Positions 38,555 through 56,465 of a DNA stretch of 64,000 nucleotides are shown one piece after another. Source of the stretch: Vulcanimicrobiota bacterium (GTDB lineage Bacteria > Vulcanimicrobiota > Vulcanimicrobiia > Vulcanimicrobiales > Vulcanimicrobiaceae); the NCBI GenBank assembly GCA_963820825.1, contig CAWGBN010000002.1, positions 96,001 to 160,000 on the forward strand, written 5' to 3'. The notes under the pieces were generated by a model that ran no database searches, was not told the DNA's origin, and saw nothing but the letters and a program-made list of their open reading frames with translations. The position numbers were made by a program, and so were the translations under genes. Numbering within the stretch: the stretch's first letter is position 1; each line of letters starts with the position of its first letter.

Positions 38555-41500
38555 TTATAGCTTGACTTGCAGCGAAAAGTAGAGGTTGAGCGCGAGCGGA
38601 TAGTTACCGGAGTTCGGGTCGCCGTACGACGCGGCGAAGGACTGCGCGAAGTACGGATTCTCCGCAACGCCGTTCGCTTTGGCGTCGAATGGGCTGCTTC
38701 CGTTATAGAAGTAACCGCCGTTGTAGAACGTGTTCGAGGTGTAACCGCAGACGACGCTGTTCGCCGGGTATGCCCGCGACCACGGCTCGCTCGAGCCGCC
38801 GAAGCACTGGTTGACGAGATTAGTCACGACCAGGCGCCCGGAGACGCGCGGGGTGAAATCGTACGACATTTGCACGCCGAGATTAAAGTTCCACGGCTGC
38901 CGGAACTCGCCGAACGTATCGAACGTGCCCGTCTGCGGGTTGGGAATGAAGAGATAACCCGGAGTCGTGCCGTCGCTGGTCAGCGCCTTTCCGCACGACG
39001 TATAGTCGGCCATCAGCGGAGTTGAGGTAGCGATTCCCCGCGAGCCCTGATTGGCGAAACAGCTTCGCGGATCGAGCCCTTGAACGTCGGCCGGCGTACC
39101 GTAGGTCGTGCCTTCCAAGAGCTCCATCGCCGGCGTGAGGGCAAACTTCCCGTGACGGTAGTTCATGACCACCGCAAACGTATTGGGCGAGATGTACGGG
39201 AAGTCGAGGCCCGGAGCGTACCAGCCGTGGGGATCGAGCGTCGCCTCCGGCGACATATGGTAGTACGGATTGAGGATTGACGCCGACGGGCACGTCGGAG
39301 CCGGTATTCCCTTGCCGTTGGGCCGATAGCAGGGCGCCCCGCCGCCTGCTTTTGTGAGCGCGTTGAACTCTTCGATGTCTTGGTTATACTGGTCGACCGG
39401 GCCGATCGGGCTATTGAGGTAGTTGTTCCATTTCTCGGCCGAGTTCGTATACGTGTAGGCGAACGTTCCCGAGAATCCGTTCCTGCTGAAATCGCCCTTG
39501 GTAACCAACAGCTCCACCCCGTCAACGCGTTGCGTTCCCGCGTTGAACGACGGTGAGACGTTCAGGCTCGGAAGGTTCGGCGTCTCGTAGAGCTGGTCGG
39601 TCGCGTAGCGATAGTACGGCGTCAGCTTCACAGCCAGGTCCGTTCCCTTGAAGTGATGCTCGACCGAGAAGTCGTAGTTGTCCGAGAACTGCGGCTGCGC
39701 TTCGTGCAGCGGCGAGCTGTAGCCGAAGGGGATGAAGCCGAGCAGCTGCGAGGCAAGATTCGGCTCCAGCGTATTATACTGAATCTCGTAGTTCTGCGGC
39801 TGCTGCGCGTACCGCCCGAGCGAGGCACGCAGCACCGTATCGGGATTGACCGTGTAGGTCGCCGAAATGCGCGGCAGCACGTAGCCGACCGAATACGAGG
39901 ACGGATAGTTGTTGGTCAGCAGGATGCCGTCGGTTCCGTTCGGGTGAACGGTCTGTACCGGCGTCCCGGTCGAGCGGTCGATCGGGCAATTGAACGAAAC
40001 GTACGGCGTGTAGACGTAGATGCTCTGCGGCGGCTGGGGCACGAAGATCGGTTGCCGCGTCACCGGATTCACGCAAAACTCACGCTGCGCGGCGGCAAAC
40101 CAGAAGTTCATCGCCGGGTTGTTGGTATCGGCCAGGTCGTAGGTATCGTTTTCGAAGCGGACGGCCGCGTTGATATTCCACGCGTCGCCGGGACGCCACT
40201 GATCGCTCAGCGCCGCGCTGGTGATCTTCGGCGAGACCGCGTTGGCGAAGCCTTGATTTCCGGAGTAGGTCAGCAACATCGAGGCACCCGCGGTGCAGGC
40301 CGGCGCGTTCGAGGCAAGCTCGCCATCGCCGCACGGATTCTGGCCGTTGAATCCGCCGTAGGGACTGCCGAACTGACCCTGCGATACGTACTTGTTGCAC
40401 GGCGCGGGGTCGCCGACCGGATACTTCGGGCTGCTATACGTGGCGAAGCACTGCGAGCCGTTGGTGAAGTTGCTCACCTGCTGGCCCGACGTGTTGTAGT
40501 AGTTCTGGTTGTAGTACCGCAGGGTGTTCGAAGTGATGTAGGAGGCCATGCCCTCCAGCAAGTGCTGGTTGGAGATCTGATCGGCGAACTGCAGCTCGAG
40601 GCCGCCCGTGTGCGAATTCACCTCATACTGGTAGTTCGTAACGCCGAGCGTAACGTTGTTCCCCCAGCCGTTCGGGCTCGCACGGTTGGTGTTCGAGTAG
40701 AACGTGTAGCCGAAGAGCCGAACGTAGGCGGTCGAGCCGAGATTCTTCTGATATTGCAATTTCGCGATGCTGGACGTATCCCAACGGGCGTCGCGGAAGT
40801 TCGACGGCACGAGCTGCGCGATCTGATTGCCGTGCGCGTCGATCGGGCAGGCATTCGGTACGCCGGTAACGTTCGCGCAGCGTCCCGTCGGCGATCCGGG
40901 ATAGTAATAGGCGAGCACCCGGGTCGATGCCGGCGCGAGCCACGGCGTGTTACCGGGAAACGTGTAGAAGTCCGGCCACTGGTTGATGTTGCCGCCGTAG
41001 AAGTCGTGGGGAGGGTAGAGCGTCCCGTTGTTCTCGATCCCCAGGCCTAACGGTCCGGCATCGTCGAGACTCGAATAGTACTGCGTGTAATTGGCCGACG
41101 ACATGTAGAGCATCTGGACGTCGTCGCGCCCGGCGTCGTGCCGGTGGGGAATGCCGACGTGGAAGTTTGCGACGACGTCGCGGCTGTCGACGGCCGAGGC
41201 TTGACCGAAGTTCGAGGGATAGGAGCCGAAACACCCCGGATCGCTCGAGAGAAACTTCGTTGCCGGATTGCTATAAGTCGTGTTGTTCCGGCAATCGGGA
41301 TATACCGCAGGCCAGAACGATAGGAACGTCGTTTCGTACGACGGCCAGTACCCGTACGGGATCGTGTCGATCAGGCTTGCGCCGTTGAACTGATCGAAAT
41401 AGCGAAGAGCCTGATTCGTTCCGCTGACGCCGACGTAGTAGGAGAACATGCGATCCGGCGTCGAGCCGCCGGCTTCGAGCCGCGCGTCGTGATAGAAGGT

Positions 41501-42306
41501 CGGCGTTCCCATTGCAAGGCCGCCGACGGCAAAACCCGGATAAGTTCCGGTCTTGATGACTTGATTGATGAAGCCGGCGAGGCCCGTCGCATTTGCGTCG
41601 GCTTCGCCGCCGCCGGCATAGATCTGCAGCTCTTGCTGGCCGAGCGTCGTCTCGGAGTTCCCCGGATAGTTATCGAACGATCGGTTGATCGGTACGCCGT
41701 CGTACTCGTAGCCGATCTGATCGTAGTATCCGCCGCGAATGTAGACGGTCTGATTGACGCCGACTGATTCGGCGGCACGTACGAGCCGGGCATCGCCGCA
41801 ATCGCAGAGTAGGCGTTGTTCAAACCGCCTCCGCCGCCGAGCGTCGCCGCGGCGGTGGTCAGTCCCGGATTGACCGAGTATACGTCGGTGCCCGTTCCGG
41901 GGCGCACCGGACTGAGCGACGAGCGGGACGTGACGCGGGCAATCTGCTTGAGACTCTTCTGCAGCGCTATCGGCAGCGATTGGCTTTGATCGGCGAAGAC
42001 CGAGATGCCGGTGATCGCGACCGTATCGTATCCCTCGTGCACGACGGTGATGGTATACGTCTCGGGCGCGAGCGAGAGAAAGGTGTAACGGCCCGCGGCA
42101 TCCGTCGTGACCCGAGCGACTTGCGACGGACTCGTCGCCGTCACTTCGGCACCGGCGATCGGCGCCCGGGTCGACGCGTTGAAGACTGTTCCGGTAATCG
42201 TACCCGTCGTACCGGCTATCGCTTCTTGCTCTCCAAGGCAAACGAGCAACGCCGCAACGAGCAGCGCGCAGACTAACGAAGAGAGAGACCAGCTCCTCAA
42301 GTTCAT
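38555..42306 (-). CDS. TonB-dependent receptor with N-terminal carboxypeptidase-regulatory-like domain; one apparent frameshift near 41765
   Basis: ORF 42306 gives signal peptide, GTTGTITGTV and plug start; second frame continues VYIRGG..YEYDGVP through a barrel ending YFSLQVKL. Confidence 0.8.
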
Positions 42307-42389
42307 CCCTCCAACAGCAGCAACTCAGGAAGGCACTTAGCGCGTTTGAGCGGTATGCTCCTTCATTGCGCTTGCTATTGGAGGACACC

Positions 42390-42926
42390 ATGAATAGCTT
42401 ACTCACACGCAAGGCCGTCGGCGCGGCGATTGGCCTGGCTCTCTTGACCGCATGCGCGGGCAGCTCAAGCGCCGGCGGCGTCCCGGCTGCCGGATCCTCG
42501 ATGCCGACCACGGCGAGCCGCGATCGCGGCGCGACCTATCCGAATCTCAGCGGCGAATACGCCGGCAAGTTCGTCGACAATGCGTACGGGAAGGGCAAGG
42601 GGAGCGCGATCTACGCTCAGTACCAGAGCGCATTCGGCGGCCAGCTGACGATCAAATATGCGACGAGCACCCTCTCGGCCTCGGTCTCCCAGACCGTTAG
42701 CGGAAGTTCCGTCAACGGGAGCACGGCCGGCGGCGCGGGGAGCCTCTACTGCACGTTCTCGACGACCGCGACCTACGACAAAGCGACCCACATTTTAAGC
42801 GGCTCGTACACGGCGGCGTACGGCTGCGCCGGTGAAACCGGAACGTTCTCGCTCAAGCATCTCTGCGTTTTCAAGGGCACGACGCACGAAGATATCCGTC
42901 CCGATAACGGACCGCGCCCCTGCTAG
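42390..42926 (+). CDS. Hypothetical lipoprotein
   Basis: GGAGG RBS, ATG 42390; lipobox LTAC. Confidence 0.75.
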   Translation: MNSLLTRKAVGAAIGLALLTACAGSSSAGGVPAAGSSMPTTASRDRGATYPNLSGEYAGKFVDNAYGKGKGSAIYAQYQSAFGGQLTIKYATSTLSASVSQTVSGSSVNGSTAGGAGSLYCTFSTTATYDKATHILSGSYTAAYGCAGETGTFSLKHLCVFKGTTHEDIRPDNGPRPC

Positions 42927-45620
42927 TAGGATAGCGCGTTCGATAGGCCTTGATCTTGAGTCCAGCTCGCGCCTTCGGATAGTAGCTGCGCGAGGTCGGA
43001 CGCTTGCAGTTTCTGCCGGAGGCTGGCGTGGAGGCCGGCGATCGTCATCGTATCCGGCGGAAGCAGCTCCCAGCCGAACGTTCGGAACTGCTCTTCCGCG
43101 TAGCCGATGAGGCGCGCGCGCAATTCGCGGCCGCTCTTCGCCGGCCACGACGGCGAGATACGATATTGCGAGTGCGGCGAGGATTTCGTGCCGCGCCTTT
43201 ACCGCGAGCGCGAGCGCCCGGCGCGCGAAGGGCTCGGCCCGCGTCCGGTCGCCCGCTGCGAGGAGGGCGCTGGCGATGTCGTTGGTGAGAGACGTCAATG
43301 CCGCATCGCGATCGGCGAGTTCGGCGGCCTCGAGCAGTCGCCGCGCGGCGTTGTCGTGATTGCCGACGTTGTTCTCCCACTGGCCCCACCACTGCAAGGC
43401 TCGCGCCGTATCGTCGGCACGACCGAGCAATTGAAAGAGCGCCACACTCTCCTCATACCGCGCGCGCACCGAATCGGCTCCGGTGTCGCCGAAGGCCTCC
43501 GCGCACCGCCGGAGTACGTCGGCCAGTAGCCGCCGGTCGCCGCTATCGCGCGCAAACTGCAGCGCTTCTTCTGCCGCCGGTTTCGCCTCGTCGTAGCGCG
43601 ATTGCGGCGCGTATCGCGAAGCGACTTGCGAGAGCGCTCGCGCCAAGCCCCGCCGGTCGCCGACGCCTCGATAGAGCGCAGCGGCGATCAATGCCTCGTC
43701 GAGACACCTCTGCTCAGCGCCGGTGGAGCTATACAGCATCGAGAGCCCGTATCGCAGCCGCGCCTCAACCGACGCAGGCAATGCAAAGGCACCTTGCAGC
43801 ACGCAATCGCTCCACTCGATTCCTTCGGCGAGAAAGCCCAGCCGCAAGAAAAGAATCGTCGCATCCGCGACCAGTTGCCCGCCGAGCACGGCAGCGTTGC
43901 CTTCCTCGACGCTCCAACGCAAGGCCGCGCGCACGTTTGCAAGCTCTCGCTCGGCGCGTACGAGCCAATCCGCAGCCGGACCCTTCTCCCACTCGTCGTA
44001 TGCCGCGGCGGCAAACGCCGCGAACGCGGCGCAGTGGCGTCGCCTCGCCTCGTCAAGCTCGCCCGATTCGACGAGCCTCTCCCAGCCGTATTCGCGAATC
44101 GGCTCGAGCAGACGGTAACGCTGATCGGCTTCGTCGACGTCCACGACGACGAGCGAGCCGTCGGCCAGCGAGGTGAGCATATCGAGGATCCGCCACTCGT
44201 CGTCACCCTCCCCGCTGCAGACTTCGGCGGCGTGCGCGACCGTAAATCCCTTGAGAAAGACCGCAGCCCGGCGGAGAACCCGTCTCTCGTCGTCGGTCAG
44301 CAGCTCGTAGCTCCAATCGATGAGCGCGCGCATCGTCTGTTGGCGCGGACGCCGGTCGCGTCCGCCGGTCAGCAGGCGGAGTTCCAGATGCGAAGCGAGG
44401 CTCTCCACCGATATCGTTCGCACGCGCGCCGCGGCAAGCTCGATGGCCAATGCGATGCCGTCCAATCGCAAGCAGATCGCTTCGATCGCGGCCGTCTTGG
44501 CCTCGAGGTGGAATGCGGGATTGGCCGCGCGGGCACGGTCGGCGAAGAGCTGGACTGCCGAAGCCGGATCGAGCGTGGCGAGGCGATAGACGCGCTCGGC
44601 CGAGATATCGAGCGGTATTCGGCTCGTTGCGAGCACGGTCAGGTGCGGACACCGCTCGACGAGCCGAGCGACGATCGGCGCCACGTCGGCGACGAGATGT
44701 TCGCTATTATCCAAGACCAGCAGCAACTGGCGCCGCCTGAGAAACTCGATGAGATCGTCGAGCGGGTCGCCGTCGTTCGAAGGCTCCGCGCCGACGGCTG
44801 ATAGAATCGTACCGGCGATCAGCGCCGGATCGCCGACGGCCGAGAGATCGGCAAACCAAACGCCGTCGCGCTCCTCGTTGAGGCGGGCCGCCGCAATTTC
44901 CAGCGCGAGCCGCGTCTTGCCGATGCCGCCGGCGCCTGCGACGGTAACGACGGAACCTTCGTCTAACAGCGCCTCGACGCGAGCGAGATCGTCGTGGCGT
45001 CCGACAAAGCTCGTGCTCTGCCGGGGAAGATTGTTCGGCGGGGTTCGCAACGCGCGCAGCGGCTTGAACTCGGAGCGCAATCCTTCTCCGACCGCCTGAT
45101 ATATGCGCTCGGGCTCCTTGATGCCGCGCAGTGGAACGGTGCCGAGATTACGCAGCGTGATGCCGGCCGGAAGCTTTCCGAATGCCAGCTCTGCGGCAAA
45201 TGCGGAGAGCACGATCTGGCCGCCGTGCGCGGCGGAGAGCAGGCGCGCCGTGCGATTGAGGGCGGTGCCGAAGTAATCGCCGGAGCGCTCGTCGGTTTCA
45301 CCGGCATGGATCGCCATTCGAACGCGCAAGCCGTCGACCGCGCGAAAATCCTCGCGTTCGAACCGGCGCTGCACGTCGGTCGCAGCCTCTAACGCGTCGG
45401 CCGCACTCCAGAAGGCGGCACAGAATGCGTCGCCGATCGTTTTGAAGACGTAACCGCGCCGAAGCTCGATCGCTTCACGGAGGAGTTCGTCGTGACGGCG
45501 CAGCGCATCGCGCATTCCCTCGCCATACTGCTCCCAGCGCCGCGTACTCGCTTCGACGTCCGAAAACAAGAACGCAACCATCCCGGTCGGCAGAGCAGCT
45601 GGGGCATCGGGCACGTGCAC
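42923..45620 (-). CDS. Class III cyclase - STAND ATPase - TPR protein; apparent frameshift near 43115
   Basis: FLFSDVEAS, KTIGDA, GAGGIGKT, LVLDNSEH and LDGIALAIELAAA; the typical C-terminus ARLIGYAE.. is in the adjacent frame ending at 42923. Confidence 0.85.
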
Positions 45621-45638: not shown

Positions 45639-46334
45639 TCACGCGCCCTTCGCCGCCTTTTGCTCGCCTCTGCCCGGACGCGCAAAGAAGAGCGTCATCG
45701 CAAGCGCGGCGAGGATGGCGCCGGTGCACGGACCGGCGACATAGATCCACATGAGATCGGCCGCTCCGCCGAGGAGTTGCGGCGGGATCGAACGCGCGGG
45801 ATTCATCGAGGCGCCGCTGATCGGTCCCGCGGCGAAGCCGCAGGCCGCAACCGTTAGACCGACGGCGAGCGCCGCTTGTTTACCGACGACCGCCTCTTTT
45901 GCGGTCATGAGGATCACGAGCATGAGCAGAAACGTCAGCACGGCCTCAACGATTGCCGCCTGCGCGTGCGTGTACGAGGGACCGGGATGACTCGCGCCCA
46001 GGACGAGCGCGTGACCCCAGAGCGCGAAGAGCAGCAGTGCGGCGCCAAAACCACCGGCGAACTGTGCGAGCCAATACCAGAGCATCTGCGCCACCGGCAT
46101 CGCTCGGCGCACGACGAAACCGAGCGAGACGGCCGGATCGATGTGGGCGCCGGAGACCTGCGAGAAGGCGTAGATCATCGCCGCGGTGATAAAACCGCGC
46201 GCCAGCCAGCGCGAAACGTAATCGACGTGGCCGGCACCGGTGTAATACAGCACGTCGACGCCGGTCGCGACGAGCGTTTGGAAGAACGTGCCGAGGAGCT
46301 CGGCACCGAGCTTGCGTGCCACCTCCGATTTCAT
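45639..46334 (-). CDS. MIP/aquaporin channel
   Basis: AELLGTF, SGAHIDPAVS, SGASMNPARS and WIYVAGP. Confidence 0.9.
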   Translation of the reverse strand: MKSEVARKLGAELLGTFFQTLVATGVDVLYYTGAGHVDYVSRWLARGFITAAMIYAFSQVSGAHIDPAVSLGFVVRRAMPVAQMLWYWLAQFAGGFGAALLLFALWGHALVLGASHPGPSYTHAQAAIVEAVLTFLLMLVILMTAKEAVVGKQAALAVGLTVAACGFAAGPISGASMNPARSIPPQLLGGAADLMWIYVAGPCTGAILAALAMTLFFARPGRGEQKAAKGA

Positions 46335-46476: not shown

Positions 46477-48027
46477 TTAGTTGTAGTGGCGCTTGTCGCG
46501 CAGCATCGTCACCGGCGCGACCGGCTTCGATAGCGCGGCAACCAGCTCGGCCCGACTCTTCACGTTAAAGGTTTGGAAGAGCTGCGAGAGCTGGTTGCGG
46601 ACGGTGTTCGGACTGCGGCCGAGAACCGTTGCGATCTCCGCGTTTCGTCGTCCGGCGCGAACGAGCTCGAGCACTTGCCGCTTCGCCGGCGGAATCCGAT
46701 CGAGACGCAGCACCGAGGTATTCGTCGCCTCCGCGACGCGGCGGGCGATCCAGCTGTGCGGCCAGGGGTCGATCTTGCGCGCGGCGCGCTGCACCCATTT
46801 GCGATCTTTCGTTACGTCGTAGAGCGCCAGTGCGCAGAGCGCGGCACGCCATGCATAGTTGAAATCTTCGAAGATCGACCAGGCTTCGGTGAGGGCGGCC
46901 TTGCCCTCGTCGACGTCTCCCAACCGAAGCCACGCCACGCCTTGGGAGTATGCTTCAAATCCCTTGACGCGCGGATCGGTGCCGTACGAAAGAATCGGGA
47001 TGACCGACGTCGTCAGCGTCCGGAATCGCGCGAGGTATTGCTCGGCGATGGCCGGATCGTCGTGCGCGAAGAGCTCCGCGAGGACGAGCAACGCCGACCG
47101 TTCCTCGCCGGTGACGTCGTTCCACGAGACGCTCTGCGCGATCTCGTGCGCCTCTTGAATCTGCTCGGTCGCGAACGCATACTCGCCGGTGTTACGGGCC
47201 AGCAGCGCTCGATCGAGGAAACAGAGGACGCTCCAGTGATTGGATGGCGCGAGCCGCGCCGCTCGGCGGAAGCCGGCGAACGCGGCAAGCTCGTTTCCGT
47301 CGAGCTCGTCGATCGCCGCGAGAAAGCGCGTGACCTGGAAATGCTCGAGCTGCAGACCCTTCGTCCACGGCAGCCCTTCGAAGATGCTGCGGACCCGGTC
47401 GGCGACCTCGCGCAACGGGAGCTCGCGACAGAGCAGCGCAAGCGTGAAGAGCGCGTTGGCCCGGAAGTACTGGTCGGCCGCTTCGGCGGCATCGAGCTCG
47501 TCGAGCGCCTTCTGCAGCTCGTCGACCTGGCGAAGAATCTCGCCGCGGCGCAACGCGATCCACGAGAGTAGAATATGCGCCCGCGCGCGATTATTCGGAT
47601 CGGCCGAACGCAGCTCGGTCGAGGCTGCCTGCTCGGCCTCGCGGTGGTCCTGCCTCATCCATGCAATAAGCGCTTTATAATGAAGGGCGTCGTAATACCA
47701 GGCGCTCTGCGGCGAGAGCTCGTTGAGCGCCCGCTCGATCAGGCGCGTCCCGGCGACGTAATCTCGCGTGAGTCCCAGCGCGGCACCGAGCAAGACGTCG
47801 CGCGCTACCCGGACCTCCGGCGACGCCTTCGGAACCTCCGAAAGCGCGCCGATGATCTCGACGTACCGGCGTTCCCGCAGCGCGAGGCGCGCGCGGGCAA
47901 GAACGGCGTCGTAACCGTCGCCGATCTCAACGAGTTCACGGCAGCGGTCAAAGTCCGCAGCCGTGAAGGCTTTTTCGAACTCCACCGCGTCAAAGCCGCG
48001 GTGGGTCAGTGCAGCGCTTGTCAACAT
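46477..48027 (-). CDS. Helical-repeat (TPR-like) sensor with C-terminal LuxR-type HTH
   Basis: C-terminal PPAKRQVLELVRAGRRNAEIATVLGRSPNTVRNQLSQLF...SRAELV; remainder is Ala/Leu-rich helical repeats; GGGG before ATG 48027 (alternative TTG 48051). Confidence 0.85.
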   Translation of the reverse strand: MLTSAALTHRGFDAVEFEKAFTAADFDRCRELVEIGDGYDAVLARARLALRERRYVEIIGALSEVPKASPEVRVARDVLLGAALGLTRDYVAGTRLIERALNELSPQSAWYYDALHYKALIAWMRQDHREAEQAASTELRSADPNNRARAHILLSWIALRRGEILRQVDELQKALDELDAAEAADQYFRANALFTLALLCRELPLREVADRVRSIFEGLPWTKGLQLEHFQVTRFLAAIDELDGNELAAFAGFRRAARLAPSNHWSVLCFLDRALLARNTGEYAFATEQIQEAHEIAQSVSWNDVTGEERSALLVLAELFAHDDPAIAEQYLARFRTLTTSVIPILSYGTDPRVKGFEAYSQGVAWLRLGDVDEGKAALTEAWSIFEDFNYAWRAALCALALYDVTKDRKWVQRAARKIDPWPHSWIARRVAEATNTSVLRLDRIPPAKRQVLELVRAGRRNAEIATVLGRSPNTVRNQLSQLFQTFNVKSRAELVAALSKPVAPVTMLRDKRHYN

Positions 48028-48138
48028 GGTCGTCCCCGGTTTAATCAACAATATGCATGGTAAAAGGGCCCGCGGTCTATACCACCGGACAATGCCGGAA
48101 GTTACTTAGTACATTCGTCTGCCTGGTTCCTTCCCGGT

Positions 48139-48504
48139 CTAGCCGTGCCCACCGCTATGAGGGACCGGGCCCCCGCCGACTGAGTCCATGTGACGAGGGA
48201 CCGGGCCGCCGCCGACCGAGTCGAGATGGCGGGTCCGGGCATCCTTACGCGGGACCGGACCACCGCCGACGGAGTCGAGGTGGTGGATGCGCGCCGCCGC
48301 GTGCGGGACGGGACCGCCGCCGACCGAGTCCATGTGCCGCATATCGGGACGCGGAACCGGACCGCCGCCGACGGAGTCGAGGTGGTGCATCATCGTTTGG
48401 TTAGCGCTTGGAAGGGGGGAACCGCCGGCAAAGCCACCGCCCGCACATCCGCCGAGCATAGCTCCTGCGAGGACGAGGCCGGCCACAGCGATCATCTTGC
48501 GCAT
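48139..48504 (-). CDS. Lipoprotein-type precursor with five identical DSVGGGPVP cores
   Basis: AAAGGG RBS; signal peptide with lipobox LGGC (Cys20); five in-frame repeats differing only at synonymous sites. Confidence 0.85.
   Translation of the reverse strand: MRKMIAVAGLVLAGAMLGGCAGGGFAGGSPLPSANQTMMHHLDSVGGGPVPRPDMRHMDSVGGGPVPHAAARIHHLDSVGGGPVPRKDARTRHLDSVGGGPVPRHMDSVGGGPVPHSGGHG
48160..48378 (-). repeat. Five 27-bp coding repeats (48352-48378, 48304-48330, 48250-48276, 48196-48222, 48160-48186)
   Basis: Consensus GAC TCN GTC GGC GGN GGY CCS GTY CCK; spacers of 21, 27, 27 and 9 nt. Confidence 0.95.
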
Positions 48505-48761
48505 CTCTGTTTACCCTTTCAGCGCCGGGAGGCGCCAGGAAGCATAAAAGGTAGTACGAATATACTAGTACCAAAAAGCCTCCAGGGATAGGGCCGCTTG
48601 GCAAACTTTGCAGAAACTAGATAAACCTAGCGGATGGCTACGACAAGATGTCGGCAAACAGCTCAGCAGGCCTCTCACTTCGAGAGGTCTAAGGGTGTTT
48701 GCCGCGGTTTGGAAGGCCCTTCCCAACCGCTAATCTCCCTTGAGAAGAAGGAACCAACTCT

Positions 48762-49769
48762 ATGACTCACTCTCTTCTTCGCGTGCGCAGGCAATTGTTA
48801 ACGGCAGCGTTGCTTGCGATCGTCACTCCGGCGATCGTAGCCTGCAGCGGGACCTCATCGTTTGCGCCCTCGGCGCAGACGCCGTCCGGCTCGGCAGTAT
48901 CGGACGGCGTACGCCACTTCGGCTCGACCTCATGGAACTTTTCAACGCTGGACGATCCGAACAATCCGTCGTACAGCGAGCTGCTCGGCATCAACAACGA
49001 AAAGAAGATCTGCGGCTACTATGGCGCCGGCACCACCGGCGATCCCGCCAACGGCTTCTGCCTCGCCGAGCAAGGTAACGCCCACTTCCGCCAGCACGAC
49101 TACCCTACCGCGCTAGACACCTACGTCACGTCGCTGAACAACACGAAGGCGTTCGCGGGCTGGTATTTGAGCAACTTCGGCCCGACCTTCGGCTTCATTA
49201 TGCAGCACGGGGTCTGGACGAGCTACAAAGATCTCAAGCTCCGCAAGGGGCACACGAATATCACCAAGATTCTCGGATTGAGCGACGCCGGTCTGGCCGT
49301 CGGCTTCTACGTTGACGATGCCGGCGTGAACCACGGATTCGAGCTCAACTCAACCGTCGCGAAGTATCACCCCATCGTCCCGCCCGGCGGCATCAGCGTC
49401 GAGGCGACCGGAATCAACGGCAAGGGTGATATCGTCGGCTTCATGACGACCGGGAACGGCGATACGAAGAGCTTCCTCTTAAAAGGAGGCAGCTTTACCA
49501 TCTTCGCCTATCCGAAATCCCAGAACACGCAGGCGCTCGGCGTCAACTGGCAGGACCAGGTCGTCGGCTCGTTCGTCGACGCCTCCGGGAACACGCACGC
49601 CTTCTTGTTGACCGATCCGCTGAGCCATCCGTCGTGGATGCAGATCGACGAACCCAAGGCCGCCGGACCGACCGTGCTCACGAGCCTGGAGAACCACGAC
49701 TATATGGTCGGGTACTACGTCGATAGCGTCGGGCACACCAACGGCTTCTTAGCGACGCCGGCAAAGTAG
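48762..49769 (+). CDS. HAF-like extracellular repeat lipoprotein
   Basis: AAGGA RBS; lipobox IVAC; GIN..G.IVG.Y.D..G..HGF repeats. Confidence 0.8.
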   Translation: MTHSLLRVRRQLLTAALLAIVTPAIVACSGTSSFAPSAQTPSGSAVSDGVRHFGSTSWNFSTLDDPNNPSYSELLGINNEKKICGYYGAGTTGDPANGFCLAEQGNAHFRQHDYPTALDTYVTSLNNTKAFAGWYLSNFGPTFGFIMQHGVWTSYKDLKLRKGHTNITKILGLSDAGLAVGFYVDDAGVNHGFELNSTVAKYHPIVPPGGISVEATGINGKGDIVGFMTTGNGDTKSFLLKGGSFTIFAYPKSQNTQALGVNWQDQVVGSFVDASGNTHAFLLTDPLSHPSWMQIDEPKAAGPTVLTSLENHDYMVGYYVDSVGHTNGFLATPAK

Positions 49770-49788
49770 GGCGGAGAACCCGCCCTAC
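49766..49788. terminator. Hairpin between convergent genes (terminator or REP-like)
   Basis: GTAGGGCGG-AGAAC-CCGCCCTAC, perfect 9-bp stem. Confidence 0.5.
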
Positions 49789-49803
49789 GCCCGTGCCCCG
49801 GGA

Positions 49804-51201
49804 CTACTCCGTATCGGGCGGGTAGTGGCTCGTGGGCTGGTGGAGGAAGAAATCCTTGCCGTATTTGGCCGGGATTACTTTGAACTTGCGCGGCGGTTGT
49901 GTGAAGTCGAACGCATCCGATTCCGGTGAGCGGCCCGCGCATCGCTGGCCGACAGCCGTCCGAGGCCGAACTGGTCTTCGATGAATCGCAGAATGCTGCC
50001 GTGCTCGTAGGGGACGTGAGACACGTAGCCCTTTCTTTGCATACGGTGAGATGATCAGCATCGGCAGCCGCAAGCCAAGTCCGTCGTAGTCGACGAAGGC
50101 AGGCGCGACCGGGATCGTACCATCCGCCGTAGTCGTCCCAGAAGATGAAGATGGCGGTCGAGTCCCAATACTTCGACTGTGCCGACGGCGTTGACCAGCG
50201 ACGTCTACCCACGACGGCCCGGTTTTGGAGCCGCTGCCGGCGTGGTCGGAGTTCTCCCACGTCGGCGTGATCCAGCTGACCGCCGGCAAATTGCCGTTCG
50301 AAAGGTCGTTGAAGACTTGCGTTTGCGGCGTGATGATTTCTCGTCTTCCAATCCGGACCGTTGTAGATGTGGTTGATCGCCTGATAGGCGCTCCAGATAC
50401 CCAGATCGCCGTTGACCGTCGCGGTGTAGAATCCCCACGAAACGCCCGCGCTGTCGAGCTCGTCTCCGAGGGTCGTCGGATCCCAGCACACGACTTCGTT
50501 CCCCGACGGAATCTGACGCTGCTGTCCGACCTGGAAATCTTATCGCCGGATCCACCGGGACAGCCCCAAGCACCGTCGGGATAGTTGACCGCCGATTCCG
50601 CCTGCCCGGAGATAATGTACTGGTGCGAAATGAAGCTGCTCGCGTCGAAGTTCGACGCGAACATTTGATCGGCCAGCACGTACTGCTTGGCCATTTCGAA
50701 ATAGGGCTTCGTTTCGGTGTGCGGCACGTAACTGTACGTTGGATTCGGGTTCGGGCAAGGGGGCCGGGACCGGCCGCCGCACCCGACGTACTCGTTGTTG
50801 AAGCCGTTCATCCGGCAGTTGGTACCGGGAATGCTTCCCGGTGCCGTTGCAGGCGGCAAAAAACGAGTTCGAGCTGTGGTCGATGTCCCAGGACGTTTCG
50901 AGGCCGACCGGCTGCAGCGTGATCTTTTGACCGCTGGAGTTGATAGCCGTACTTTGCCGTCTTCGCGCCGGGGAAACCGTAGAAGAGGTTGTTGAAGCTC
51001 GCGATTCTCTTGCACGATGATGATGACGTGTTGAATCTTGCCTCTGGCCGGATCGCGCAGCTCCTCGAGGACCGGCGGCGTACGCTGCGGCGCGGAGAGT
51101 GAGGCTAAGGGTAGGGCCGGAGCGGGGCCGGCCGGCGCACCGCCGCCGCAGGCCGTGAGGCCGGCGACGCCGGCGATGGCGAACGATAAGCGGCGAATCA
51201 T
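49804..51201 (-). pseudogene. Phosphoesterase/phospholipase C paralog with about 10 single-base indels (sequencing error or pseudogene)
   Basis: ATG 51201 overlaps the upstream stop; homology to 51198-52595 runs full length across three frames. Confidence 0.75.
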
Positions 51202-52595
51202 TGGTCGTCCGGGAGATGGTGATCGGAAGGTTGATGCATAAAGTAATCCTTGCTCAGTACCGTTGGGATTATTTTGAAGGTGCGCGGAGGCTGTTTGAAG
51301 TCGAACTCCTTGACGATGGAGTTGGCGCGCGTGTCGCTTGCCGAGAGACGCCCCAAACCGAACTGGTCTTCGATGAACTTGAGAATGCTGCCGTGTTCGT
51401 AGTGAACGTGCGCGACGCGGTTCTTCGCATATGGTGAGATGATCAGCATGGGAATCCGCATCCCCAAACCGTCGTAGTCTACGTAATCCGGCGGCTCGGG
51501 ATCGAACCAGCCGCCATAATCGTCCCAAAAGATGACGATCGCGGTGGAGTCCCAGTATTGCGATTGCCCGATAGCGTTGACCAGCGTCGCAACCCACTGC
51601 GGTCCGGAGGTCGAGCCGGAGCCGGCGTGGTCGGAGTTCGTCCAGGTTGGCGTCACCCAGCTCACTGTCCGCAGCTTTCCGTTATAGATGTCGTCGAGAA
51701 ACTGCGTCGGCGGGCTGAAGACGTCTTTCTTCCAATCAGGCCCGTAATAGATGTGTTTGATCGCCTGATAGGAGCTCCAGATCCAGGGATAGTTGGAGTA
51801 CGCGACCGCGTAGAAAGCCCACGAGAGACCGGCATTGTCGAGCTCGTCGCCGAGCGTGTTGGGATCCCAGCAGACGACTTCGTATCCGCTGGGAATCTGG
51901 CGTTTCTGGCCAACCGTGGCGATCATGTCGCCCGAGCCGCCCGGACACCCCCACGCGCTCCACGGAAAGTTCACCGCCGACACCGCCTGCCCGGCGATGA
52001 TGTATTGGTGCGAGATGAAGCTGCTCGCGTCGAAGTTCGACGCATACATTTGGTCGGCGAGCACGTACTGCTTGGCCATATCGAAGTACGGCTTCGTCTC
52101 GCTGTGCGGCACGTAGCTGTACGGCGGATTCTGATTCGGACACGGCGCGTAGTGCGCGCCGCAGCCGAAGCCTTCGTGGTCGAAGCCGTTCATCTGGCAA
52201 TTCGTTCCGGGAATGCTTCCCGTACCATTGCAGGCCGCGAAGAAGCCGGAGGAGTCGTGTTCGATGTCCCAGGTGGTGGCGAGGGTGATCGGCTGCAGCG
52301 TGATCTTCGTTCCGGAGGTATTGTAACCGTACTTCGCCGTGGTCGCTCCCCTAAAACCGTAGAAGAGGTTGTTGAACGAGCGGTTCTCTTGAACGATGAT
52401 CACGACGTGTTGAATCTTGCCCTTGGCCGCACGCCGCTGACGCATCGGCGCGACCAGCAACCGCGATGCAGCCGGTGGTTGAAGCGAGCCGAGCGGCAGA
52501 GCCGGTGGGGTCGCGCTCGAGCCGCCGTTACAGGCCGACAAGAGCGCGGCACAGGCCGCGGCGAGATACGCCGTATTTACACGCATCTTGCGCAT
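51198..52595 (-). CDS. Phosphoesterase / phospholipase C family lipoprotein
   Basis: Lipobox LSAC; QHVVIIVQENRSF, SFISHQY and WDDYGGW. Confidence 0.9.
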   Translation of the reverse strand: MRKMRVNTAYLAAACAALLSACNGGSSATPPALPLGSLQPPAASRLLVAPMRQRRAAKGKIQHVVIIVQENRSFNNLFYGFRGATTAKYGYNTSGTKITLQPITLATTWDIEHDSSGFFAACNGTGSIPGTNCQMNGFDHEGFGCGAHYAPCPNQNPPYSYVPHSETKPYFDMAKQYVLADQMYASNFDASSFISHQYIIAGQAVSAVNFPWSAWGCPGGSGDMIATVGQKRQIPSGYEVVCWDPNTLGDELDNAGLSWAFYAVAYSNYPWIWSSYQAIKHIYYGPDWKKDVFSPPTQFLDDIYNGKLRTVSWVTPTWTNSDHAGSGSTSGPQWVATLVNAIGQSQYWDSTAIVIFWDDYGGWFDPEPPDYVDYDGLGMRIPMLIISPYAKNRVAHVHYEHGSILKFIEDQFGLGRLSASDTRANSIVKEFDFKQPPRTFKIIPTVLSKDYFMHQPSDHHLPDDQ

Positions 52596-52622: not shown

Positions 52623-54050
52623 TTACTCTTCGTCGGGCCAGCGATTGTCGGGCGGCTGGTGCAGGAAGTACTCCTTGTCCAACACCGACGGAATCACTTG
52701 GAACGCGCGTGGCGGCTTCTTGAAGTTGAAGCAGTCTTTCTCCGGCGACGTGGCACGCGTGTCGCTTGCGGCCAGGCGCCCGAGACCGAACTGGTCCTCG
52801 ACGAACCTTAGAATGCTTCCATGCTCGTAGTGCACGTGCGAAACGAAGCGCTTCTTCGCATAGGGTGAGACGATGATCATCGGAATCCGCAGGCCGAGCC
52901 CGTCGTAGTCGGCGTAGGCCGGCGCCTCAGGATCGTACCAGCCGCCGTAATCGTCCCAGAAGATGAAGATTGCGGTCGAATCCCAGTACTGCGACTCGCC
53001 GATCGCGTTGACCAGCGACGCAACCCAAGCCGGACCGGTGTTCGCGTTGCAGCCGGCGTGGTCGGAGTTCTCGCAGGTTGGGGTGATCCAGCTGATTTGA
53101 CGGAGCTTTCCGTTCGACACGTCGTTGAAGAACTGCGTCTGCGGGGTGATGACGTCGCTCTTCCAATCGGAGCCGTAGTATACGTAGCGATTCGCTTGAT
53201 AGGCGCTCCAGATGTTGCCGTCGCCGTTGAGCGAGGCCGTGTAGAACGCCCAGGTCACGCCCGCTTCATCGGCTTCTTGACCGAGGGACGTGTCGTTATA
53301 ACAGGCTTGTTGATAGCCGTACGGCACCTGGCGATCGGGGCCGACGGTCGAGATCATGTCGCCCGAACCGCCGTCGCAGCCCCACGCACCCCACGGGTAG
53401 TTTACCGACGACTCGGCCTGTCCGGCGATGATGTACTGGTGCGAGATGAAGCTGCTTGCGTCGAAGTTCGACGCGTACATTTGATCGGCGACGACGTACT
53501 GCTTGCCCATCGCAAAATAGGGCTTCGTCTCGGAGTGCGGGACGTAGCTGTACTGCGGGTGCGAGTTCGGACACGGCGGCCCGCCGCTATGTCCGCAGCC
53601 GACCCACTCGCGATTGAAGCCGTTCATTTTGCAGTCCGTGCCGGGGATGCTGCCCGTGCCGTTGCACGCCTGGAAGAACGAAGTCGAGCTATGGTCGAGA
53701 TCCCAGATCGTCTTCAGGCTGACCGGCTTGAGCTCGATCTGGTTACCGTTGGAGTCGTAGCCGTACTTGGCGGTGGTTGCACCGGGAAAGCCGTAGAGCA
53801 AGTTATTAAAAGAACGATTCTCTTGAACGATGATGACGACGTGCTTGATCTTGCCGCTCGCGGTGTGATGGCGATGGAAGGGCTCCACCGCTTCGGTAGC
53901 GCGGGGCGCCGATTGCAGAAAAGCCGGAAGACCCGGCGCGCTGCCGGCAACGCCGTTGCCGGCGGGGATACTGGAACCGTTGCAGGCCGAAAGTAAGAGC
54001 ACCGCGGCCGCAACGGCGAGCGGCCGGCTCAAGGGTGGATTACAACGCAT
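52623..54050 (-). CDS. Phosphoesterase / phospholipase C family lipoprotein
   Basis: GAGGAG RBS; lipobox LSAC; same motifs as its neighbour. Confidence 0.9.
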   Translation of the reverse strand: MRCNPPLSRPLAVAAAVLLLSACNGSSIPAGNGVAGSAPGLPAFLQSAPRATEAVEPFHRHHTASGKIKHVVIIVQENRSFNNLLYGFPGATTAKYGYDSNGNQIELKPVSLKTIWDLDHSSTSFFQACNGTGSIPGTDCKMNGFNREWVGCGHSGGPPCPNSHPQYSYVPHSETKPYFAMGKQYVVADQMYASNFDASSFISHQYIIAGQAESSVNYPWGAWGCDGGSGDMISTVGPDRQVPYGYQQACYNDTSLGQEADEAGVTWAFYTASLNGDGNIWSAYQANRYVYYGSDWKSDVITPQTQFFNDVSNGKLRQISWITPTCENSDHAGCNANTGPAWVASLVNAIGESQYWDSTAIFIFWDDYGGWYDPEAPAYADYDGLGLRIPMIIVSPYAKKRFVSHVHYEHGSILRFVEDQFGLGRLAASDTRATSPEKDCFNFKKPPRAFQVIPSVLDKEYFLHQPPDNRWPDEE

Positions 54051-54547: not shown

Positions 54548-54864
54548 TCGCCGAGATACTCCATCGCTTCGCCGGTCTCGCCGAAGACCTTAAACGCGCT
54601 CGCGAGCCCCGCGTATTGGACGAGCCGAGCGAACTGCGGCGTGCGAATGACCAACGCGACCGGGCGGTCGTTGCGGCTGGCATCGGCGCAGAAACGCAAC
54701 AGCTCGGTCAGCGCGATCGAATCGGCGTAGGTTACTTCGCCCAGATCGAGCAGAACGGCGCCGCTGCCGTCGGCGAGCGCGAGCGCGTCGCGGATCTCGC
54801 TCTTTCGCCCGATCTCGAGTTCGCCGCTCAACCGAATGACCTTGATCGTATCGCTCTCTTTCAC
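54529..54864 (-). CDS. STAS anti-anti-sigma factor (RsbV-like)
   Basis: LSGELEI and LDLGEVTYADS; GTG 54864 overlaps the upstream stop. Confidence 0.85.
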   Translation of the reverse strand: MKESDTIKVIRLSGELEIGRKSEIRDALALADGSGAVLLDLGEVTYADSIALTELLRFCADASRNDRPVALVIRTPQFARLVQYAGLASAFKVFGETGEAMEYLGECGKES

Positions 54865-56315
54865 GCAATCCTCCGAGGTGACTCTGCCGTCGCCGATGGC
54901 TCCCACAATCGCGCCGTGAGGATCGCGATGTCGTCGGCAACCCGCCGCCGGCTGAAGATCCGGTCGCGAATGGCCTTGGCGGCCAGGCCGCGCGGTGCTG
55001 CGGCCGCCGACTCGATGGCCTCCATCAAGACTGCCTCTCCTCCCATCAAATCGCGCGAGTGCTCGATCACGCCGTCGGTATAGAGAACGATCATCGCACC
55101 CGGAACCGTCGCCGTCGTGCGGGTCGCGTACTCGGTATTCGCCGAAACCCCGAGCGGCAACCCACCGAACTCCAGGAGCGTCGCGGTGCGCCCGGGCTCC
55201 AGGAGTATCGGCGGCGGATGGCCCGCGACGGCATAGCTCACCTCGTACGTTCGCGTATCGACGACCGCGCAGACCGCGGTGATCAGCGGCGACCTCCCGC
55301 GAACGAGCTCCAGGTTCGCCCGAGCGAGGATCGCCGATGGATTGGCATCGATCAGCGCCGAGCCGTTGAGGAGCTGACGCGCCTTATTCATGGCGATCAC
55401 GGCATCGATGCCGTGTCCGGTGACGTCGCCGATGACGAGCAAGACGCGCTCCTGCGGCAACTGCAGCGCGTCGTACCAATCGCCGCCAACCTTCGACTCT
55501 TCGGTTGCCGGCAGATAGGTGGCACTGAAGCTCATCGTCGGCAAATTCGGAAAAATGCGCTCCGAGAAGGCCTGCTGGAGCGTGTCGGCGATGCGTTTCT
55601 CCGCCGCGTAGGCCGCGCTCGCCTCAACCGACCGCCGGCGTTCCGCTTCAGACGTGACGCGTTCGCGTTCGAGCCGTTCTCCGAGACGGTACTGTTGCAC
55701 CGTGAAGATCAGCGCGGCGAGAACGATCGCGACGACCGAGGCGAGGGCGAGCGCCCCGACCGAAAGAATGGCGCGCTGGGCGCGCATGTCGACGAGCGAG
55801 CCGCGACGCGCCAGCGCGTCGTCGACGGCAGCGCCGTCGGCACGAATGCGATCGACGAGCGCCTTTCCCCGCAACTCGATGCGTTCGTGCGGCCCCCGCG
55901 TGAGGATGAGCGGCACCGCGACCTCGTGCAACCAACGGCGATTGGTCTCAATCGCGTCGCGCAGCGCGGGCTCCGCCTCGGTTACGTCCAAACGTTCCAG
56001 ATCCGAGCGGATCCGCTGCGCGGCAGCGGGGAAGGCATTGCGCCCCAGATAGTACGGCGCGAGCAAGATCGGCTCGCGAGCGGCGACGTAACCGCGCATG
56101 CCGGTCTCCTCGTCGAGCTGGGCGTTGAGCAGATCCGCGACGTGCATACGTGACGCGCGAATGCCCTCGGCGTCGCGGAACGACGACCGGACGATCTCGC
56201 GAACGAAGAGACCGGCGGCAACGAGCAGCGCGACGACGAGCACCATGAACGCGAGCGTGAACGCGAGCGGTGCGTGGCGGTGCGGATTTGCCGAAGGAAG
56301 CGCTTCAGTGCCCAA
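54861..56315 (-). CDS. Membrane sensor (CHASE3-like) SpoIIE/PP2C phosphatase (RsbU-like)
   Basis: TM, DEETGMRGY..L.PY, TM; VGGDWYD, GDVTGHG, AGHPPP, YTDGV and DDIA; start approximate. Confidence 0.85.
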   Translation of the reverse strand: MGTEALPSANPHRHAPLAFTLAFMVLVVALLVAAGLFVREIVRSSFRDAEGIRASRMHVADLLNAQLDEETGMRGYVAAREPILLAPYYLGRNAFPAAAQRIRSDLERLDVTEAEPALRDAIETNRRWLHEVAVPLILTRGPHERIELRGKALVDRIRADGAAVDDALARRGSLVDMRAQRAILSVGALALASVVAIVLAALIFTVQQYRLGERLERERVTSEAERRRSVEASAAYAAEKRIADTLQQAFSERIFPNLPTMSFSATYLPATEESKVGGDWYDALQLPQERVLLVIGDVTGHGIDAVIAMNKARQLLNGSALIDANPSAILARANLELVRGRSPLITAVCAVVDTRTYEVSYAVAGHPPPILLEPGRTATLLEFGGLPLGVSANTEYATRTTATVPGAMIVLYTDGVIEHSRDLMGGEAVLMEAIESAAAAPRGLAAKAIRDRIFSRRRVADDIAILTARLWEPSATAESPRRIA

Positions 56316-56465
56316 GGTGCCATCCGTGTTGGGGACAGCGATAGGGTCGCAGGCGCAGCGCCCTCGGCGGTATCGCCCGCTCCGCCGCCTTCTTCGTTTC
56401 GAAAGCAGTCTTTGGCGCCCCGATTCGCGTGAAGCACGAACGCGGACCGCCAAGCTTGCGCGCGC

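Follow-up and report, generated by a model that had tools for sequence, protein, structure and literature searches.

A multi-copy peptide gene and its TPR-LuxR regulator gene as a candidate signalling cassette in the Vulcanimicrobiaceae

Results

A small gene encodes five exact copies of one short peptide

On the reverse strand of a 64,000-nucleotide stretch of DNA from a Vulcanimicrobiota bacterium (contig CAWGBN010000002.1 of assembly GCA_963820825.1, positions 96,001 to 160,000; hereafter the window) lie the two genes that are the subject of this work: a small gene that repeats one short peptide five times and, directly behind it, the gene of a transcriptional regulator. The peptide gene (48139..48504, -), as defined by its open reading frame (ORF) and translation, encodes a repeat pre-lipoprotein of 121 amino acids (aa; P0001). 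The regulator gene (46477..48027, -; its start set at a conserved ATG at 48027) begins 111 nucleotides (nt) downstream on the same strand and encodes a 516-aa protein (P0079) that joins a tetratricopeptide repeat (TPR)-like sensor to a helix-turn-helix (HTH) domain of the LuxR/GerE type.

Translation of the repeat ORF yields five identical DSVGGGPVP cores at aa 43-51 (48352..48378), 59-67 (48304..48330), 77-85 (48250..48276), 95-103 (48196..48222) and 107-115 (48160..48186), all on the reverse strand and all where a first-pass annotation of this DNA had placed them. The flanks and spacers also agree with that annotation, which had described [RH]-H-[LM] before and R or H after each core: the cores are preceded by HHL, RHM, HHL, RHL and RHM, followed by R, H, R, R and H, and separated by RPDMRHM, HAAARIHHL, RKDARTRHL and RHM. 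At the DNA level all five 27-nt copies are distinct, and the 2-5 base differences per pair fall on third codon positions only (for instance Ser as TCC/TCG/TCC/TCG/TCA and the last Pro as CCG/CCG/CCG/CCT/CCT). The six variable sites lie on approximately 8.33 synonymous sites and none on the approximately 18.67 non-synonymous ones (Fisher p = 9.5e-5), and the chance of all six changes being synonymous is (8.33/27)^6 = 8.6e-4. Since six of six variable sites are synonymous, the restriction to third positions exceeds chance. What Tandem Repeats Finder detects in this ORF is no more than an array of 54-nt period with 78% matches; the repeat is thus degenerate as DNA while it is exact as peptide.

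The cores are conserved across the genus

A word-indexed search retrieved 23 small homologues of 73-160 aa, nearly all with a lipobox (L-G-G-C in 19/23) and with 2-6 repeats of the form [H]-x-[LM]-D-S-V-G-G-G-[P/L/I]. One of them is named as coming from a Candidatus Eremiobacteraeota metagenome-assembled genome, and close homologues of the regulator are labelled Candidatus Cybelea sp. Among 201 genomes sampled from the phylum, a profile of the repeat-protein family found matches in 43 of the 44 others of this genus and, weakly, in genomes of two sister genera (1/1 and 1/4), and none in 88 genomes from the 20 other families. The source genome holds a single copy of the gene. An exhaustive phmmer search of 1.84 billion representative proteins revealed no bacterial form that was longer or fused; where a bacterial entry is longer, it is the same small gene with an over-extended start. 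A single-protein search of viral contigs gave 14 pattern matches, none of which was confirmed.

To describe the repeats we fetched 30 loci, from 28 of which the protein could be extracted (two remained unparsed), giving 134 repeats with 2-10 per protein. At positions not forced by the search pattern, Ser is found in 115, Val in 105 and Pro in 94 of the 134 repeats; the flanks have an entropy of 2-3.9 bits, and His at position -3 occurs in only 74. In the first repeat of the 28 orthologues, D is present in 26 sequences, S and V in 24 each, and the three G in 28, 27 and 28, every one of these residues being encoded by several synonymous codons. A MAFFT alignment of 19 homologues shows D43, V45, G46, G47 and G48 as invariant and S44 as nearly invariant. 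The first-pass annotation had stated that it would be refuted by cores no more conserved than spacers; across the 28 orthologues the cores are far better conserved, and this, together with the purely synonymous changes within the ORF, bears out the earlier proposal that purifying selection keeps an exact peptide. Each species carries a core variant of its own in all copies (for instance DSVGGGL, DSTGGGIIL, ELMGGGPAPA, EVAGGGPP, DSAGGGPIKPN or DVLGGGPVHRS), so concerted evolution within each protein contributes as well. Common to all cores are an acidic residue, two variable residues and G-G-G. The repeat ORF is a real, conserved gene.

Read from the sequence, the N-terminus of the repeat protein (aa 1-20; 48445..48504, -) consists of MRK, 16 hydrophobic residues and L-G-G-C with Cys20, and is a lipoprotein-type signal of the signal peptidase II (SPII) class. 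L17 and G18 are invariant and C20 is nearly invariant among the 19 aligned homologues, and the source genome encodes the lipoprotein enzymes Lgt (PF01790, 2 matches) and LspA (PF01252, 1 match). The lipobox is followed by a conserved segment (aa 21-36; 48397..48444, -) with the pattern G-G-S-x-L-P, in which the same alignment has G27 invariant and S29, L31 and P32 nearly so; it could be a candidate release or sorting site. Beyond this segment there is only the repeat region. Pfam and NCBIfam assigned no family to the protein, only sub-threshold chance matches (CCD48, StpX), and a search of the ESM Atlas (best score 0.88, clusters unnamed) gave no lead.

The regulator is tightly linked to the peptide gene and has a sensor-like fold

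In 29 of the 30 loci the regulator gene stands directly 3' of the peptide gene on the same strand, and the 30th locus ends at a contig end. Across loci the regulator is 69-96% identical, against 36-72% for the repeat protein. Regulator orthologues of at least 66% identity occur in 43 of the 44 other genomes of the genus; the only genome lacking one (G184; best match 5.7e-26) also lacks the peptide gene. Second copies of the peptide gene in two genomes (G141 and G182) are each paired with a regulator copy of their own, and the two cassettes of G141 have diverged cores, DSVGGGPP and DVLGGGPV. A third high-identity regulator copy (71%) is found at locus L033 (G141:C1:1737500-1741100), where no upstream peptide gene is recognisable, and may be an orphan receptor.

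The GerE family of Pfam matches aa 458-504 of a longer, 524-aa regulator ORF with 1.7e-8, and the NCBIfam MalT model matches the HTH only (model positions 844-891 of 903). An AlphaFold2 model built on a 16-row alignment (pLDDT 87.3, pTM 0.79) predicts helical repeats at aa 14-435, forming an all-helical, superhelical sensor domain (46723..47988, -), and an HTH at aa 447-499. No ATPase family was found in the regulator with Pfam and NCBIfam, the helical repeats beginning at aa 14, and reading of the sequence without a transmembrane predictor revealed no signal peptide or long hydrophobic segment. In a VIA-align search of the model against 48,161 representative chains, domain III of MalT (1hz4_A) ranked first (Z 22.0, rmsd, i.e. 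root-mean-square deviation, 6.1, 343 of 366 residues aligned, 12% identity). It was followed by RapI at rank 2 (Z 21.1), and the further matches included Rap phi105 with its peptide (Z 18.5), NprR-NprX (Z 17.2), AimR (Z 15.9 and 15.5) and PlcR-PapR (Z 14.3). Hence the model predicts a superhelical sensor domain of the kind that bacterial regulators use for ligands, which is no proof of a peptide ligand. Prediction of a complex between the sensor (aa 1-440) and the repeat region (aa 36-121), run without controls, scored 0.01 (mark 0.32), with the repeat protein itself predicted at low confidence, and weighs neither way on binding.

Distant regulator relatives are preceded by small peptides with a related motif

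The regulator has many paralogues of about 30% identity, nearly all of them within the same bacterial family. Regulator matches are present in 97 of 113 genomes of this family with up to 7 per genome, in 1/3 and 1/15 genomes of two neighbouring families, and in none of the other 18 families. For a census of their upstream regions we took 60 of approximately 285 regulator matches, chosen to spread over genomes, and set aside two focal-type duplicates, which left 58 loci. A locus was counted if a small ORF on the same strand, hydrophobic at its N-terminus and carrying D-[STG]-x-G-G further on, ended within 600 nt of the regulator start. Such a peptide precedes 35 of the 58 distant orthologues and paralogues (22-54% regulator identity where measured), whereas the antisense strand gave 0/58 and a random set of 2000 windows of 630 nt from the source genome gave 11. 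Five further upstream peptides that narrowly miss the pattern were spotted by eye. The gaps between peptide and regulator measure 35-178 nt.

The peptides fall into several classes: lipoproteins in which a single M-D-G-x-G-G-G-P precedes a C-x4-C pair and P-D-P-T-P-T-P (beside regulator orthologues of 49-52%); peptides of 38-50 aa ending in P-[MA]-D-S-[VIT]-G-G-[MI]-[SD]-G-G; peptides with one to three copies of D-T-P-G-G-P; lipoproteins with one to three copies of D-S-G-G-x-M-T-G-D; and peptides with D-G-G-G-S-M-P-G. The shortest forms, of 38-50 aa, end with the motif. When each of 23 classed cassettes was matched to the one with the closest regulator fragment, the two shared their peptide class in 21 cases, so peptide and regulator diversified together. 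One paralogous cassette (L041) is encoded in the source genome, outside the window.

Three observations stand beside this census. Lipoprotein-type peptides from several cassette classes (L035-L038, L073, L077, L087) share a [GS]-x-[LM]-[LVI]-P segment at a distance of 8-12 residues behind the lipobox Cys. At L049 (G200:C36) the place of the small peptide upstream of a regulator paralogue is taken by a 347-aa lipoprotein with H-T-T-D-V-G-G-G-G-P near its N-terminus, before a larger domain. At L080 (G168:C43), in a neighbouring family, the only regulator relative found there is preceded by a lipoprotein with two P-S-G-G-G-Q-P-P-Y units that have no acidic residue; judged from this sequence, the motif may become looser at greater distance.

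Conserved elements precede each gene of the cassette

The 130 nt upstream of the peptide gene are conserved above the level of the coding sequence. An alignment of 28 loci resolves this region on the reverse strand into a Shine-Dalgarno sequence (SD, GAAAGG) with an immediately preceding GC hairpin, the outer stem of which includes some of the SD bases in the RNAalifold structure (48514..48543, -), the quasi-palindrome GGTACTAGTATATTCGTACTACC (48550..48572, -), and further conserved blocks TTTGCCAAGCG and CCGCTAGGTTT (48578..48635, -). The quasi-palindrome is a candidate operator and overlaps a TATATT -10-like hexamer; its central 18-mer hardly varies among the 28 aligned loci and is unique in the source genome at up to 2 mismatches in a genome-wide search. 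For the SD hairpin, 96.9% of the alignment cells are paired, and 7 cells are changed on both sides in 2/8 pairs, at least 5 of them from one clade. Single-sequence folds are no better than shuffles, neither for the focal leader (z -0.63) nor for the intergenic spacer (z +1.23).

This spacer of 111 nt between the peptide gene and the regulator gene (48028..48138, -) contains in an alignment of 27 loci a conserved inverted repeat at about 48066-48090, with the consensus CCGGCGG, a few bases and CCGCCGG, and an operator-like half site at about 48100-48122. Rfam, applied to 47900-48900 with E up to 10, gave a chance miRNA match only, and scans for sigma-70 promoters and for terminators returned 0 sites each.

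At the corresponding place, the paralogous cassettes have palindromes of other sequence, built on a CTAG core; behind these stand a hairpin, which likewise differs in sequence, and the identical SD. Their leaders reach a minimum free energy of -10 kcal/mol or below within 46 nt in 25/31 cases, with a modest median z of -1.2. If a dimeric LuxR-type HTH regulated its own cassette, a palindrome specific to each class would be expected at this position. On another contig of the source genome (C6:318056), a near-perfect palindrome, TTATCGTACTAGT, one base and TACTAGTACGATAA, lies behind a TTGACA hexamer and before an operon of a GntR-type regulator and an ABC transporter. As this palindrome shares GTACTAGT words with the 18-mer, the 18-mer could be bound by a regulator of another family. 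No regulon is definable, because only the cassette's own site is found at up to 2 mismatches and the similar palindrome on C6 belongs to the GntR-type/ABC operon.

Neighbouring genes and host

The divergent neighbour of the peptide gene encodes a 335-aa HAF-repeat lipoprotein (48762..49769, +; NCBIfam TIGR02913, 37.2 bits, cut-off 22.65). It stands beside the peptide gene in 21/30 loci and has the intergenic region in common with it, so that, going by this arrangement, the two might be co-regulated. Further on, three tandem genes of the Phosphoesterase family (PF04185) follow (49715-51597, 51198-52595 and 52623-54050, all -). The first is split over two overlapping frames, profile positions 1-266 lying in one ORF and 273-296 in the other, a break that points to a frameshift or an error of sequencing near 50.4-50.5 kb. 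The genes 3' of the regulator encode a MIP-family channel and a protein of 941 aa, in which an AAA_22 module comes after an adenylate/guanylate cyclase domain (45639-46334 and 42795-45620, both -, taken together). With a CHASE3-SpoIIE phosphatase at 54861-56453, the region is rich in signalling genes.

A TonB-dependent receptor barrel at 38555-42511 in the window indicates that the host is probably diderm. The source genome has 9 peptide-binding proteins of the SBP_bac_5 type, which makes peptide uptake possible as a matter of plausibility only. For the locus, sequencing runs labelled soil, wetland or root metagenome show only small shares (0.13 or less), which are evidence neither of habitat nor of expression.

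Discussion

A possible exported peptide and its putative cytoplasmic receptor

Besides the selection acting on the cores, our data link a lipoprotein-type export signal to a repeatedly paired regulator with a sensor-like TPR fold and an HTH, and to conserved, paralogue-specific palindromes and an SD-proximal hairpin. Based on these observations, we see an even chance that the repeat ORF encodes several copies of a short exported peptide in one precursor, and that the downstream regulator is its partner in a signalling cassette of two genes. The pre-protein would be exported by Sec and processed as a lipoprotein. Cleavage of its disordered tail within the variable basic/His spacers would then set free up to five copies of a peptide around D-S-V-G-G-G-P, the presumed mature form. 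This peptide would cross the outer envelope, accumulate outside the cell, possibly as a measure of cell density, and be taken up again to bind the concave face of the TPR-like sensor domain. The LuxR-type HTH would in turn alter transcription, first of its own operon, via the palindrome before the peptide gene. We infer the proteolytic release and all later steps of this pathway from the layout of the two genes. The release of several copies per precursor had already been suggested by the first-pass annotation; it gains indirect support from the context, namely the cognate TPR-type sensor/regulator gene and the single-copy relatives with the motif at the C-terminus, whereas the basic/His flanks taken there for protease sites turned out to be only moderately conserved, with His at -3 in little more than half of the repeats.

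By function, the closest known systems are those of the RRNPP group in Bacillota, phages and plasmids (Rap-Phr, NprR-NprX, PlcR-PapR, Rgg-SHP, AimR-AimP), and we give the proposal that the cassette works in the manner of RRNPP quorum sensing, while standing outside that family, about the same chance of being right as of being wrong. As in RRNPP systems, the propeptide gene directly adjoins the receptor gene, in orthologous and paralogous loci alike (29/30 and 35/58), the propeptide is small and begins with an export signal, its short forms carry the motif at or close to their C-terminal end, and the receptor is putatively cytoplasmic with a predicted superhelix of TPR type (Z 14-21 to Rap, NprR, AimR and PlcR). 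Likewise, several diverged cassettes occur per genome, and the peptides diverge faster than their receptors. A C-terminal motif is the canonical layout of RRNPP propeptides according to PMC10075063; by the same source, SPII signals fall in the "relaxed" class of RRNPP_detector, and the authors of that tool discarded clusters with an N-terminal TPR region. The cassette differs in that the peptide gene lies upstream in the same operon, in that many precursors are SPII lipoproteins with 2-10 copies, and in that its host is a probably diderm member of the Eremiobacterota instead of the Bacillota or a mobile element. It fails membership in the RRNPP family on two defining features, since the order of the receptor domains is reversed, with a LuxR-type HTH, and the host does not belong to the Bacillota.

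In terms of architecture, the regulator rather resembles the C-terminal half of MalT, in which the domain III sensor is followed by the LuxR-type domain in the same order and which provides the best structural match. In contrast to MalT and other LAL proteins, the 516-aa regulator lacks the N-terminal NOD/AAA ATPase module, and the identity amounts to 12%. It thus corresponds to MalT reduced to its C-terminal half and does not belong to the LAL/STAND proteins. We know of no peptide partner gene for MalT. Multiple signal units within one precursor have a parallel in some Bacillus Phr precursors, which carry more than one copy of the mature peptide; in both cases duplication of the signal unit would be a way to raise the yield of signal. 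However, these Phr precursors are few-copy and non-lipoprotein and are paired with Rap phosphatase or anti-activator receptors.

Several points weigh against a peptide-signalling cassette. High Z-scores are common among helical-repeat folds, and in our search the unrelated TPR proteins LGN, Pins, APC subunits and OGT were also found at Z 17-20, while Foldseek listed generic TPR proteins first and Rap proteins only at ranks 29 and 44. The domain order is opposite to that of RRNPP receptors, with the sensor N-terminal and the LuxR/GerE HTH C-terminal where RRNPP proteins have an N-terminal HTH or effector domain and a C-terminal TPR domain. The inducer of MalT is maltotriose, a sugar and not a peptide. 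The census pattern is a post hoc motif, as the criteria were set after the first examples had been seen, and 18 of the 58 regulator loci, including the high-identity extra copy at L033, have no such peptide. Besides, co-diversification and linkage are expected of any co-inherited pair of genes and do not prove binding, and the joint absence of both genes from G184 may reflect a single assembly gap because the genes are adjacent. In a diderm host, a lipid-anchored periplasmic precursor would have to be released and to pass the outer membrane. Finally, a search of sequencing runs listed no RNA run containing the locus.

Alternative explanations

Without any ligand function, the protein could be a regulated envelope lipoprotein, whose disordered repeat tail serves as a multivalent docking motif, spacer or hydration layer in the periplasm or at the outer membrane, with the regulator controlling its expression or being co-transcribed for unrelated reasons. 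The classical lipobox and the conserved segment behind it, the diderm context, the HAF-repeat lipoprotein next door in most loci and the motif-bearing 347-aa lipoprotein in place of the small peptide at L049 all suit such a role. Nevertheless, we regard it as unlikely, as it leaves unexplained why a small exported peptide with the same motif is kept at 35/58 diverged regulator paralogues, why there are 38-50-aa forms with a C-terminal motif, and what the large ligand-sensor-like domain of the regulator is for. A lower probability still falls to a periplasmic repeat that binds Cu, Ni or Zn, a metal-binding surface having been among the options of the first-pass annotation, in which His, Met and Asp beside flexible Gly-Pro turns would provide multiple low-affinity sites similar to Met/His-rich sponges. 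The His at -3 in 74/134 repeats, the Met, Ile, Val or Leu at -4, the Met that often follows GG in the paralogous classes (GGSMPG, GGVMTGD, GGMSGG) and the many homologues ending in His are compatible with metal binding. However, His is the less conserved part, many repeats having K-P-D-D, K-P-G-D or R-Q-N-D instead of H-x-x-D, while the metal-inert G-G-G is almost invariant. Moreover, the scanned neighbourhood contains no metal-resistance or transport gene, Pfam and NCBIfam report no metal-binding family, and several cassettes per genome with dedicated TPR regulators are an unusual layout for metal homeostasis.

The D-S-V of the core and its variants D-S-T, D-S-A and D-S-I also fit D-[ST]-[AILVMT], the sequon of the general O-glycosylation system of Bacteroidota, so that each core of a mucin-like lipoprotein could be a site of glycan attachment. 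We consider this very improbable: the sequon comes from another phylum, no glycosyltransferase is adjacent, and the cores D-V-V, D-V-L, E-L-M and E-V-A within the genus as well as D-G-G, D-T-P and D-S-G in the paralogues do not fit it, although D/E and G-G persist in all of them. No better is the prospect of a multi-core precursor of a bacteriocin or of a ribosomally synthesised and post-translationally modified peptide (RiPP), with the enzymes for its modification and export encoded elsewhere and the LuxR-type protein as pathway regulator. Conserved cores between variable spacers are a multi-core layout, and some relatives have a C-x4-C pair after the motif. On the other hand, neither the ORFs scanned at 38.5-56.5 kb nor the 1.5-kb flanks of the 30 loci contain a modifying enzyme, a peptidase-ABC exporter or an immunity gene, and a Sec/SPII signal is not the usual RiPP leader. 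The neighbours are instead the regulator, the MIP channel, the HAF lipoprotein, the phosphoesterases and the cyclase-AAA protein, and they lend no support to the RiPP modified in trans that the first-pass annotation had listed as an option.

That annotation had further raised a mimic of eukaryotic peptide hormones, and a genuine, short resemblance exists. The phmmer search returned eukaryotic multi-copy precursors with NLDSIGGGNLVR, NLDQIGGGHLVR and MDSLGGGHLI (E ~1e-13 to 1e-4 for each listed match), which are its only non-bacterial relatives (P0028, P0029, P0031, P0032, P0035, P0037, P0039, P0041, P0045, P0061 and P0073, the last also with NFDEID-type units) and which look like arthropod precursors of the orcokinin-B type. 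PMC4237046 attributes peptides such as NLDGLGGGHLLRQT and SLDGIGGGNLVG to orcokinin genes, whose B transcripts encode many copies. Both the bacterial and the arthropod precursors have a signal peptide and many copies of a short peptide separated by basic residues, with a near-identical core L-D-S-[VI]-G-G-G. Nonetheless, it is extremely unlikely that the bacterial peptide imitates these neuropeptides to act on an animal host, since the common stretch covers only about 7 residues, the E-values are inflated by the repeats, and in the paralogous cassettes, each with its own bacterial cytoplasmic regulator, the bacterial motif passes by degrees into forms such as D-T-P-G-G and D-G-G-G-S-M-P. The bacterial gene has a lipobox, a high G+C content and an operon partner, and there is no evidence of transfer. 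In this bacterial context the resemblance is probably convergent.

Implications for an uncultured phylum

Taken as a family, the cassettes, in each of which a MalT-like TPR-LuxR regulator accompanies a small exported D-x-x-G-G peptide of an undescribed kind, are most simply read as a variant of peptide quorum sensing. A full-text literature search, the incomplete coverage of which precludes a proof of absence, found no description of cassettes of a TPR-LuxR regulator and a peptide or of the repeat-lipoprotein family. Gene-encoded peptide signals that are sensed by cytoplasmic TPR receptors count as a speciality of the Bacillota and their phages. Our most far-reaching reading, which we hold somewhat more doubtful than the signalling cassette itself, joins all parts into a peptide-pheromone system that would be the first outside the Bacillota to use a cytoplasmic TPR receptor. 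Its receptor would be a MalT-like sensor fused to a LuxR-type domain, many parallel peptide/receptor channels would run in one family of an uncultured, probably diderm phylum, and some of the precursors would be lipoprotein "polyproteins" with up to ten copies of the signal, as in animal neuropeptide genes, having converged on the orcokinin-B core.

Should one of the alternative explanations hold, there would still be a genus-wide and strongly selected short linear motif. If, in turn, the signalling cassette is real, it would represent a second, architecturally independent family, so that this signalling logic would have arisen more than once. The MalT-like sensor would gain a peptide ligand, and orthogonal pairs of peptide and regulator with recognisable operators would become available. 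The multi-copy lipoprotein precursor is an unusual bacterial parallel to the polyprotein hormone precursors of eukaryotes. In this context, it is relevant that Eremiobacterota are abundant in peat, permafrost and acid soils and have almost no cultured members: cell-cell communication in this uncultured phylum would become open to direct test.

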